Below, piece by piece: positions 9,001 through 12,000 of a stretch of DNA of 64,000 nt. Made by a program: the position numbers. The first letter of the stretch is position 1. Each line of letters begins with the position of its first letter. Source of the DNA: a virus (taxonomy: Duplodnaviria > Heunggongvirae > Uroviricota > Caudoviricetes). The stretch lies in the IMG/VR virus record IMGVR_UViG_2939521961_000004; one strand, 5' to 3'.

Positions 9001-12000
9001 GCCGTGAATCCATGCGGGTATTTCATGGCGGCAGGGTGCTGGTGGAGTCTGAACCGAAAAGCATGCGTAATCTGCCGTCCGGGGTCGTTCCTGCCGTTCG
9101 CCAGCCGCTGGCGGAAGATAAATCATTACTGCCATTTTTCAGCAATGAGCGTGTGATTCGTGCTGCTGGTGGCGCTGGTGCACTGTCTGACTGGTTATTA
9201 CGTCACGTTAAATCCTGCCAGTGGCCTCATGGTGATTACCACCACAGCGAAACCGTCATACATCGTTACGGTACCGGCGCGATGGTGTTGTGCTGGCACT
9301 GCGACAACCAGCTGCGCGACCAGACATCCGAATCACTTGAGCAACTTGCTCAACAAAACCTGTCAGCATGGATGATTGACGTCATCCGCCACGCAATGAA
9401 TGGCACACAGGAACGGGAATTATCGCTGGCTGAATTATCCTGGTGGGCAGTCTGCAATCAGGTGGTGGACGCATTACCTGAGGCAGTATCGCGTCGTTCT
9501 CTGGGATTACCGGCGGAAAAAATCCGCTCCGTATACCGTGAAAGCGACATCATACCGGGAGAACAGACCGCCACCAGCATACTGAAGCAGCGCACAAAAA
9601 ATATTGCGCTACCGCCTCACACCCACCAGCAACAGAACCCACCACAGGAAAAGACGGTGGTCAGCATTGCCGTTGATCCGGAGTCTCCGGAATCCTTCAT
9701 GAAACGACCTAAACGTCGCCGCTGGGTAAATGAGAAATACACACGCTGGGTAAAGACACAGCCGTGTGCGTGTTGTGGTAAGCCAGCGGACGATCCTCAT
9801 CATCTGATTGGTCATGGTCAGGGTGGAATGGGAACAAAATCCCACGATATTTTCACGCTACCGCTGTGTCGGGAGCATCACAACGAGCTTCATGCGGATC
9901 CGCTGGCGTTCGAAGAAAAGCATGGTTCCCAGGTTGATTTAATTTTTCGTTTTCTTGATCACGCTTTTGCAACCGGCGTGCTCGGGTAAAAGAGGTTACT
10001 GATGCGTATAGAGTTTGTTTTGCCTTACCCGCCGACGGTGAACACCTACTGGCGACGTCGTGGCAGCACATATTTTGTATCAAAAGCCGGTGAGCGTTAT
10101 CGCCGGGCTGTGGCGCTTATTGTTCGCCAGCAGCGGCTGAAATTAAGCCTGTCCGGACGGCTGGCAATAAAAATTATTGCAGAACCACCGGATAAGCGCC
10201 GCCGTGACCTGGACAACATTCTGAAAGCACCGCTGGATGCGCTGACGCATGCGGAAGTGCTCATTGATGACGAGCAGTTTGATGAAATCAATATTGTGCG
10301 CGGTCAGCCTGTGCCAGGTGGACGGCTGGGCGTGAAGATTTACGAAATCAGAGGTGGTAACGATGGCGCGTGATATCCAGATGGTTCTTGAGCGATGGGG
10401 GGCATGGGCAGCAAATAATCATGAAGATGTAACATGGCCCTCGATAGCTGCTGGTTTTAAAGGATTAATCCCGACTAAAGTGAAATCACGTCCTCAGTGT
10501 TCTGATGATGACGCCATGATAATTTGTGGTTGTATGGCACGATTAAACAAGAATAATCAGTATTTGCACGATTTGTTGGTGGATTATTACGTAGGTGGAA
10601 TGACATTTATGGCTCTTGCACGTAAGCATAGATGTTCTGATGGGCTTATTGGTAAAAGGCTTTATAAAGCGGAAGGTATTATTGAAGGAATGCTTATGGC
10701 TCTGAATGTCCGGTTAGATATGGATATGCGGTAGGGATATATAGTGATGAGGGTTATGTTTTCTGTGTTTATAATTAACATGTTTATTTTTTGATGGTCA
10801 TGTATTGTGGAAGGTAGATAAAATGTTGCCTGGTGAATTGAAAATATTGATAATCAATCTTCATCATTAAATAAAAGGAGTGCTTATGTGGATTGTGTTA
10901 GTACTGTCACTGTCAACTCTCAGTTGGCATAAGGTAGTGGCTTTTTCATTGTTGACGGTGTCTGTTGTCCTGGCTGTGCTTAATGATATTATTGATTGGT
11001 CGGTGTTATTTTTTGTTGCTACAATCGTTTTTTTTATTATTTTGAAGTTCAACTGGAAATATAACGCCTGGGCTAAATCTATATATGAAGTTGGCATAGT
11101 TTTATCAGCCATAGCATTATCTTTCCATCTATGGCCAGGGTTTCACAATCCTGTAGTGCTAAATTCTGTTACTGTTGGCCCTCAGAGTACTCCCTATACA
11201 ATGTATTTTAATTTTGATAAAGCGCTGGTGCCATTTTTGTTAGTCCTGTGTACATCTTCTTTGTTTAAAAAAGAAGTAAAATCAGAAGTGTCTTTGTGGA
11301 AGTGGGGGGCTCTGTCGCTCTCTGTTCCTCTTATCCTGTTTTTGGCTGTTTTTTTTGGTGGATTAAAGCCAGAGATTCATTTTCCTGAGTGGTTGCCAGA
11401 GTTTATATTGGCTAATTTGTTTTTTGTGTCTCTGGCAGAGGAATCATTATTTAGAGGGTATATTCAATCACGGCTATCAGAAGTAACGTCTCCATTGGTT
11501 GCATTAATTGTGGCGGCTTTGTTGTTTGGTTTTTATCACTATTCAGGTGGTGCTTTACTTGTATTATTTGCCACGTTATCTGGTGTTGTGTATGGATTGT
11601 CATGGATGTGGAGTGGGCGTTTGTGGGTTGCCACCCTTTTCCATTTTGGTTTGAATCTGTGTCACTTGTTATTCTTTACCTATCCATTTTTAAAACATAA
11701 TTGATTTTTTCTATGGTTTTAAATTTATAAGACTGAAAAATAGCAGGACGTGACATTTGCATGAAAAATATGCACGGCAAAGCATTTACGTACGTAAAAA
11801 ATCAGGTATGCTGTTAAGAGTGGTTATTTCGCCGCATAGCTTGACCCCGCCTCTGAGCGGGTTTTTTGTGCCCGCAAAGTAGCGCAGTGCGTTAAATGTG
11901 CTGGTAGTTATTAATACAGGTCTTTCAGCTTGCTGGCTTTTTCGGCAAGAGTTATTGGTGTGTCACGTTAACCGGAAAGGGTAAAAAGACATGCTGAAAC

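Follow-up and report, generated by a model that had tools for sequence, protein, structure and literature searches.

A candidate lysogenic-conversion gene encoding a CPBP-family intramembrane protease between Q and the putative late promoter of an Sp4/CP-933M-like Escherichia coli prophage

The CPBP proteins, or type II CAAX prenyl endopeptidases (PF02517; among them Rce1, SpdC/LyrA, MroQ, LnsB, and the Abi immunity proteins), share their domain, motifs, and multi-helix membrane fold with the predicted product of a gene at 10886..11704 (+ strand) in IMG/VR virus record IMGVR_UViG_2939521961_000004, of which a stretch of 64,000 nucleotides (nt), referred to as the window, was analyzed. The prophage with the CPBP gene is designated prophage A, and a second prophage in the same window, used for comparison, is designated prophage B. 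Relative to the CPBP family at large, the first 170 residues and the loop at residues 78-117 of the window protein are specific to its subfamily, and no prenylated, bacteriocin, or sorting-signal substrate is evident for it. Among CAAX-family proteins of E. coli, the only precedent to which a role has been assigned is McsI, which makes E. coli G3/10 immune to its own microcin S, acts alone, and protects from a peptide toxin active on enteropathogenic E. coli (EPEC) (PMC3316575). McsI has 216 residues, is plasmid-borne, and adjoins microcin and exporter genes, whereas the window protein has 272 residues and is encoded by a prophage.

With respect to position, the closest described counterparts are the porin morons nmpC (DLP12) and lc (phage PA-2), which occupy the same slot, from a QuuD-type antiterminator gene Q to a late promoter bearing the sequence TTTACGTACGTAAA, and which likewise encode an envelope protein. 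The lc porin is expressed in lysogens. The porin gene, however, is on the other strand and its product is a beta-barrel of the outer membrane, whereas CPBP is read in the same direction as Q and its product is an enzyme of the inner membrane. The Shiga toxin (Stx) genes and other Q-dependent cargo of Stx phages are also lambdoid cargo of the Q-to-lysis region, and their downstream neighbors are alike (an open reading frame [ORF] of 65 residues, tRNA genes, and nanS-p), but stx is found downstream of the late promoter and its terminator (pR'-tR'), usually past the tRNA genes, and is Q-dependent, whereas the CPBP gene is upstream of pR'.

On balance, and by no wide measure, the CPBP gene is probably a functional moron of an Sp4/CP-933M-like lambdoid prophage, carried in the slot that separates Q from pR' and expressed in the lysogen, where it may bring about lysogenic conversion at the level of the cell envelope. 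An envelope-level role of this kind is favored because the gene lies outside the Q-dependent transcript, occupies a slot used by porin genes, and is probably expressed in the lysogen. The finding itself is ordinary, in that the member of a known family had been recognized correctly in an earlier reading of the window (the original prediction) and one positional claim made there is corrected here.

The gene is contained in the sole long ORF of its region, which extends on the + strand from a GTG at 10880 to 11704. Of the possible starts, the ATG at 10886 is preferred; it agrees with the RefSeq coding sequence (CDS), gives a product of 272 residues, and is preceded at a spacing of 6 nt by the Shine-Dalgarno sequence AAAGGAG (10873..10879, +). 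The product corresponds to phrog_13291, to WP_000265267.1, which is labeled 'CPBP family intramembrane glutamic endopeptidase' in RefSeq, and to ECs1085 of prophage Sp4 in O157:H7 strain Sakai, which is labeled 'phage CAAX amino terminal protease family protein' and is flanked by ECs1084 (Q) upstream and by ECs1086 and ECs1087 downstream. The protein family and the moron region are both known, and the gene had been annotated before, although it seems not to have been studied. The GC content of the CDS is 38.0%, compared with 50.7% for the whole window and ~52% for the flanking phage genes. At the DNA level the CPBP segment is 100% identical to many O26, O103, and O111 chromosomes of enterohemorrhagic E. 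coli (EHEC), and the ratio of nonsynonymous to synonymous substitution rates (dN/dS) is 0.10-0.25 among prophage copies that differ by up to ~40% in protein sequence; the gene is for these reasons considered real, far beyond chance, and by this comparison of copies the protein is under purifying selection.

Residues 171-260 of the protein matched Pfam PF02517 (Rce1-like) with 70.6 bits against a cut-off of 22.4 (E = 1.4e-19). The original prediction of intact CPBP motifs in an AT-rich gene was confirmed, as all catalytic motifs are present, namely EExxxR (E185, E186, R190), FxxxH (F214, H218), and HxxxN (H253, N257), and in an alignment the three motifs were invariant across 28 homologues. The motif residues fall on predicted helices 170-198, 203-217, and 246-263 of an AlphaFold2 model with ten helices, which was based on the alignment of the 28 homologues (predicted local distance difference test score 94.2; predicted template-modeling score 0.90). 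The only meaningful fold matches in the PDB were SpdC (6u0o_A; probability 0.98, template-modeling [TM] score 0.46-0.49) and Rce1 (4cad_L; probability 0.84), with weak E-values of 0.06; a comparison of the family profile with PDB sequences gave zero matches and hence no solved relative at the sequence level, and a fold search against viral structures returned distant CPBP-fold proteins only. Loop residues 78-117 (HLxPGFHN...GPxSxPFTMYFNFDKALVPF) are family-specific and invariant or nearly so. As judged from sequence and model, the protein is a polytopic inner-membrane CPBP (Rce1-like) glutamic endopeptidase in which all catalytic residues are present, and proteolytic activity is predicted on two grounds, the conservation of these residues and purifying selection.

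Since Q acts only at its own promoter-linked site, and since the block to which Q of prophage A (Q_A) belongs spans 10349-11858, pR' of prophage A is expected within those coordinates. The 3' end of this block contains, beyond the CPBP gene, a perfect palindrome TTTACGTACGTAAA (TTTACG-N2-CGTAAA; 11785..11798, +) that overlaps the -35 position of the late promoter, followed by a late promoter recognized by homology (11807..11826, +), which consists of the -10-like hexamer TATGCT (11807-11812), beginning 8 nt past the palindrome, and the initial transcribed sequence GTTAAGAGTGGTTA (11813-11826). An intrinsic terminator, tR' (CCCGC-CTCTGA-GCGGG-TTTTTT, with stem CCCGC/GCGGG and T6; 11846..11867, +), was identified by a terminator scan and RNA folding and is the only terminator downstream of the CPBP gene. 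Four lineages in which CPBP is 59-100% identical share the palindrome, the -10-like hexamer, GTTAAGAGTGGTTA or a variant of it, and the terminator directly 3' of CPBP, and otherwise share almost no non-coding sequence; the palindrome TTTACGTACGTAAA is exactly kept even in lineages with CPBP only 59-84% identical. In ORF6N-type relatives the palindrome is the variant TTTACGATCGTAAA. The pR' region of the window is 83% homologous to the sequence directly after Q in Stx2a phages. In one of these (L061) the homologous -10, initial transcribed sequence, and terminator directly follow the Q stop codon and the palindrome is TGCGGTCCGCA, while in another (L062) the same promoter unit, with palindrome GCGTACGC, stands ahead of the same 65-residue ORF. 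DLP12-type prophages contain an identical TTTACGTACGTAAA...TATGCT GTTAAGAGTGGTTA...terminator unit ~180 nt ahead of the holin gene essD.

Other Q alleles go with different palindromes (TGCGGTCCGCA, GCGTACGC), and this co-variation makes the palindrome a candidate site for Q binding. The layout of the unit in the window is that described for Q21, in which the Q-binding element is located between -35 and -10 and a -10-like pause element is present in the initial transcribed region (PMC6606751); Q_A is a distant relative of the solved Q21 structure. From this homology we conclude that the CPBP gene is followed by pR' at 11785-11826 and then by tR' at 11846-11867. With pR' downstream of it, the CPBP gene would lie between Q and pR' and outside the late leader. 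The pR' unit was located at 11785-11826 in the window, at 2707-2748 in L262, at 5257-5298 in L002, and at ~1470-1515 in the Stx2a phage L061. A third copy of a palindrome variant, at 42937, was dismissed because it is inside a minus-strand ORF, has no promoter or leader context, and is at chance level at three or fewer mismatches.

A scan of IMG/VR for the pattern TTTACGNNCGTAAA...TTAAGAGTGGTTA returned at least 120 loci, 80 of which were analyzed. The nmpC arrangement of DLP12, that is, a QuuD-type Q followed by ~1.66 kb with a reverse-strand OmpC-like porin gene, was found in 53 of the 80; an ORF6N-domain gene was present between Q and pR' in nine and a CPBP gene in five, and in the remaining 13 the upstream sequence was too short or Q was undetectable. 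The Q proteins of the porin, ORF6N, and CPBP arrangements are 80-86% identical, Q_A included. Since a porin gene, ORF6N, or CPBP occurs there beside such similar Q proteins, the space between Q and pR' is regarded as an exchangeable cargo slot. As is typical of a moron, the CPBP gene is absent from prophage B, other cargo is found in the same slot elsewhere, and its GC content is deviant; it is preceded by a position-conserved promoter-like site, and a private terminator is not present.

The original prediction that the gene lies between Q (10363-10734) and the late terminator (11846-11867), and that prophage B has nothing there, was borne out, with one refinement concerning the nature of the difference. 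In prophage B, a terminator (61173-61196) comes ~100 nt after Q (60534-61076), the 65-residue ORF comes next, and an ORF search of the gap between Q and the terminator found none. Homology between the two prophages ends at 10348/60524 and returns at 11859/61186, inside tR', so that an A-specific block at 10349-11858 (Q_A, CPBP, and 154 nt) faces a block at 60525-61185 in prophage B (Q_B and ~110 nt). Q_B is a different allele, with 180 residues (PF06576/phrog_753), and for this reason the difference is a block swap and not a simple insertion at an identical site.

Outside the QuuD-type arrangement, CPBP homologues with 55% identity directly follow an unrelated lambda-type Q (PF03589) in other prophages. 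In two of these loci (L015/L016, 4742-5000), a promoter-like TTGATT-18-TATGCT and a strong terminator were observed between the lambda-type Q and the 55%-identical CPBP gene, and the homologue is ~400 nt ahead of the holin gene. With a promoter-like site and a terminator between Q and CPBP, the homologue in L015/L016 appears to be a true late gene, the first of the late operon.

A Stx1d prophage of E. coli C311 (L004, NZ_CP062204.1; 3616-6974) carries an 84%-identical CPBP gene in the Q-to-pR' slot, and stx1dAB is found ~800 nt further downstream of Q-CPBP-pR', with a small reverse-strand ORF between. As both arrangements occur in this one prophage, the stx slot is distinct from the CPBP slot.

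A candidate sigma-70-like promoter of the CPBP gene (TTGCCT-17 nt-GATAAT; 10826..10854, +) was identified by a promoter scan, with the -10 ending 31 nt ahead of the ATG. A promoter-like site is present at the same position in the diverged copies L039, L048, and L004, in which the -35 is TTGCCA or TTGTCA. The terminator scan predicted no terminator between Q and CPBP, nor between CPBP and pR'. Transcripts of the early operon could therefore also cover CPBP, and the gene, having no private terminator, must use tR'. In a microarray study of strain EDL933 grown uninduced in LB to an optical density at 600 nm of 1.5 (early stationary phase), Z1346, the probable CPBP gene, gave a log2 signal of 11.9 in the wild type and 13.0 in an rpoS mutant (PMC2907692), and the early-left genes Z1324-Z1326 of the same prophage gave 3.4-4.4 in the wild type (PMC2907692). 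The CPBP gene is thus probably transcribed in uninduced EDL933. In the arrangement proposed here, CPBP would be transcribed from its own sigma-70-type promoter and, after induction, also by read-through of the early operon via Q, and its transcripts would end at tR'. It would then be independent of Q antitermination, on in the lysogen, and not co-regulated with late genes such as stx. The substrate of the enzyme may be a peptide or protein that is in the membrane or exposed to the periplasm, and its cleavage or processing might benefit the lysogen, for example through protection from a membrane-targeting peptide toxin or from an incoming phage.

The CPBP gene was found in 572 of 5,426 complete E. 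coli genomes, usually as one copy and almost all of EHEC type or Shiga toxin-producing E. coli (STEC) type; the carriers among those listed include O157:H7, O26, O111, O103, O145, and O121 strains. A more sensitive blastn search detected a family member in 574 of the same genomes, nearly all of them at least 95% identical to the prophage copy, and no other member of the family was detectable at the DNA level in this set. Lysogeny therefore appears to add a predicted membrane protease activity that the host is otherwise without. IMG/VR contains 44 prophage-type loci with the CPBP gene, while no isolated phage in INPHARED has CPBP, or Q_A plus CPBP, and only the leader/terminator region matched Stx2 phages there. 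Relatives with ~50% identity are present in at least 371 species-representative genomes, mostly of Enterobacterales, and genera with chromosomal relatives include Providencia, Photorhabdus, Xenorhabdus, Yersinia, and Serratia. Among the best 80 chromosomal loci, modF is upstream in 37 (as immediate neighbor, ~150-500 nt away, in 29 and with one gene between in eight) and gpmA is downstream in 29. Outside the modF context, chromosomal CPBP is a singleton in varied core contexts, and no bacteriocin, exporter, or toxin gene was found beside the chromosomal homologues examined. From these comparisons, the prophage gene appears to have been acquired from a chromosomal family of envelope genes in Enterobacterales.

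The arrangement modE-modF-CPBP-gpmA is kept in Morganellaceae, Yersinia, and Serratia (L070 and 36 other loci among L063-L142). An operon of modF and CPBP was considered and rejected, as in most species the gaps of ~150-500 nt point to two transcription units. A 60%-identical copy in Pseudomonas paraeruginosa (L138) adjoins gpmI, which encodes the other phosphoglycerate mutase, upstream of ctpA.

Several other explanations were weighed. The original prediction had placed the gene in the Q-proximal late-leader position that carries stx, which would mean the order pR'-CPBP-tR', with transcription either constitutive from the late promoter or boosted by Q. CPBP does sit between Q and the first terminator, and the spacer between Q and CPBP contains several promoter-like sites and a perfect TATAAT (10770-10775); the latter was rejected as pR', since it has no usable -35 (ATGAGG) and the homologous late promoter is elsewhere. 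The promoter unit with its initial transcribed sequence and terminator, which in Stx2a phages comes straight after Q and in DLP12-type prophages stands ahead of the holin gene, is 3' of CPBP here, and stx1d occupies its separate downstream slot in C311, so that the equation with the stx position was not upheld and the late-leader model is very unlikely. A passenger gene that is decaying or silent, and functionless in E. coli, would be in keeping with the rearranged state of Sakai Sp4, with its insertion sequence elements, and with DNA that is AT-rich and probably silenced, but the ORF is intact in the 572 genomes, dN/dS is 0.10-0.25, the motifs are invariant, and the microarray signal is probable, all of which make this the least credible of the explanations considered. 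A general protease of envelope maintenance or protein processing, without any role in conflict and merely transferred by the prophage as a housekeeping-type activity, is possible but unlikely. Its parallels are partners or scaffolds of cell-wall or lipoprotein enzymes (SpdC-SagB, LnsB) and the cleavage of C-terminal sorting signals by myxosortases, and it agrees with the vertical, syntenic distribution in Morganellaceae, Yersiniaceae, and Hafniaceae, with the strong conservation of the family-specific loop, with SpdC as the nearest solved fold, and with the nearest curated hidden Markov models, which in NCBIfam are fusions of ATP-binding cassette (ABC) permeases with CPBP, and myxosortases. 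The NCBIfam matches, however, are all far below cut-offs, and no cognate substrate gene is evident. Prophages of E. coli, Shigella, and Salmonella have acquired the gene repeatedly, and in EHEC it is kept in near-clonal form; together these observations suggest that it benefits lysogens in particular.

The explanations that assign CPBP to conflict start from its resemblance to known immunity proteins and from its location. A dedicated 'Abi'-type immunity protein against bacteriocins or microcins (cf. SkkI and the Pln proteins of Gram-positives, and McsI), by which the lysogen would resist the peptide toxin of a competitor, finds its best argument in McsI, a CAAX-protease-family protein that by itself makes EPEC immune to microcin S (PMC3316575), as well as in the intact catalytic motifs and in the singleton, 'orphan' state of the gene, which is typical for acquired immunity. 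Genes for a bacteriocin, for export, or for processing were found, however, neither beside the prophage copies nor beside any chromosomal homologue examined, a tblastn search (E <= 1e-3) of 72,556 plasmids, a set that does not contain pSYM1 (JN887338) or pMO17_54 (HE578057), returned no relative on a microcin plasmid, and the synteny modF-X-gpmA is conserved across families, unlike strain-variable immunity genes. We regard this explanation as rather improbable, and the bacteriocin-immunity link suggested in the original prediction found no support in the gene context. An anti-phage function, either superinfection exclusion at the inner membrane, in which an entry factor or the injected or pilot proteins would be cleaved, or abortive infection, would agree with the occurrence of the homologue next to Q in three kinds of prophage, two of them with unrelated lambda-type Q. 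Inner-membrane morons of lambdoid prophages often exclude phages, as do HK97 gp15 and P22 SieA, and the porin gene of phage PA-2, in the same slot, reportedly alters phage receptors. On the other side, no PADLOC defense model was matched at E <= 0.01, PHROGs lists the family as of unknown function, and the core-like chromosomal distribution is unlike that of defense islands. The link to abortive infection drawn in the original prediction goes back to the old Pfam name 'Abi', which is generally regarded as historical, and an anti-phage function is accordingly rated as quite unlikely. The core-like distribution counts somewhat against any dedicated immunity or defense function. A more specific proposal, to which only a low probability is assigned, is that CPBP is a catalytic conversion factor that makes lineages of EHEC and atypical EPEC resistant to a membrane-targeting weapon of the gut, with either the peptide or protein that enters or the inner-membrane receptor for it as the target of cleavage. 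Such a weapon might be either a class II microcin made by commensal E. coli or the apparatus through which competing lambdoid phages bring in their DNA.

The favored reading, a lysogen-expressed moron with an envelope-level conversion role, has several points against it as well. The case for a protective role of CPBP is one of analogy only. On the chromosome, its relatives are core-like, syntenic singletons that have no toxin partner, and this distribution is no less compatible with a general envelope function than with one in conflict. The late-gene placement in L015/L016 indicates that CPBP is not regulated alike in all prophages. H-NS often silences AT-rich prophage DNA, and the candidate promoter is a match of 9-10 out of 12 consensus positions in AT-rich DNA, in a region with 15 such matches against 7.3 expected. 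A full-text literature search found no published experiment on the ECs1085/WP_000265267 protein. As for transcription in the lysogen, a check proposed in the original prediction, the EDL933 signal suggests uninduced transcription, but the identity of Z1346 with the CPBP gene was inferred from consecutive numbering after Z1344, a 'putative endonuclease' (RusA). Of the two roles that had been offered for the gene, lysogenic conversion remains reasonable, given its own promoter-like site, its position outside the Q-dependent transcript, and probable uninduced transcription, while defense was left without a PADLOC match.

About one-tenth of complete E. coli genomes carry the CPBP gene, essentially those of EHEC/STEC-type lineages, and the gene is located next to that of a known virulence regulator, PsrA. 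If a lysogen-expressed protease does alter sensitivity to microcins, peptides, or phages, this would bear on competition of EHEC in the gut and on probiotic or phage interventions. If it is an immunity protease, it would be the first characterized phage-borne CPBP 'immunity protease' of Gram-negatives and would help explain the retention of Sp4-type prophages in EHEC. The slot layout of QuuD-type Q is useful for annotating late promoters and for spotting lysogen-expressed morons.

Upstream of CPBP in prophage A are a DUF968 gene (8940-9989), a RusA gene (10002-10373), and the gene for antiterminator Q (10363..10734, +), a RefSeq CDS encoding a protein of 123 residues of the QuuD (DLP12) type (PF06530, E = 4.9e-52). 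Downstream of tR' are the 65-residue winged-helix-like ORF (11991..12188, +; ECs1086, phrog_331) and the gene for the AraC-family regulator PsrA (12326..13039, +; ECs1087), which is YdeO/GadX-like; psrA has been equated with ecs1087 (PMC13502914). Both are common to prophage B, where the paralogous 65-residue ORF and PsrA-type regulator are found at 61318-61515 and 61650-62363, with ~94% DNA identity between the prophages. Each PsrA copy is followed by the same tRNA triplet, identified by ARAGORN as Met(CAT), Arg(TCG), and Arg(TCT); RefSeq calls the CAT tRNA Ile. The stx-equivalent slot of the window, between the tRNA cluster and nanS-p (13318-13806), contains a match to the small RNA STnc100 (Rfam RF02076) at 13394-13584 (+), with 138 bits against a gathering score of 47. 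Between the tRNA genes and the nanS-p-like region of prophage B only, there is an ORF of 167 residues with a TerB domain (PF05099, E = 6.8e-16; 62741-63244, +), which is a further difference in cargo between prophages A and B.

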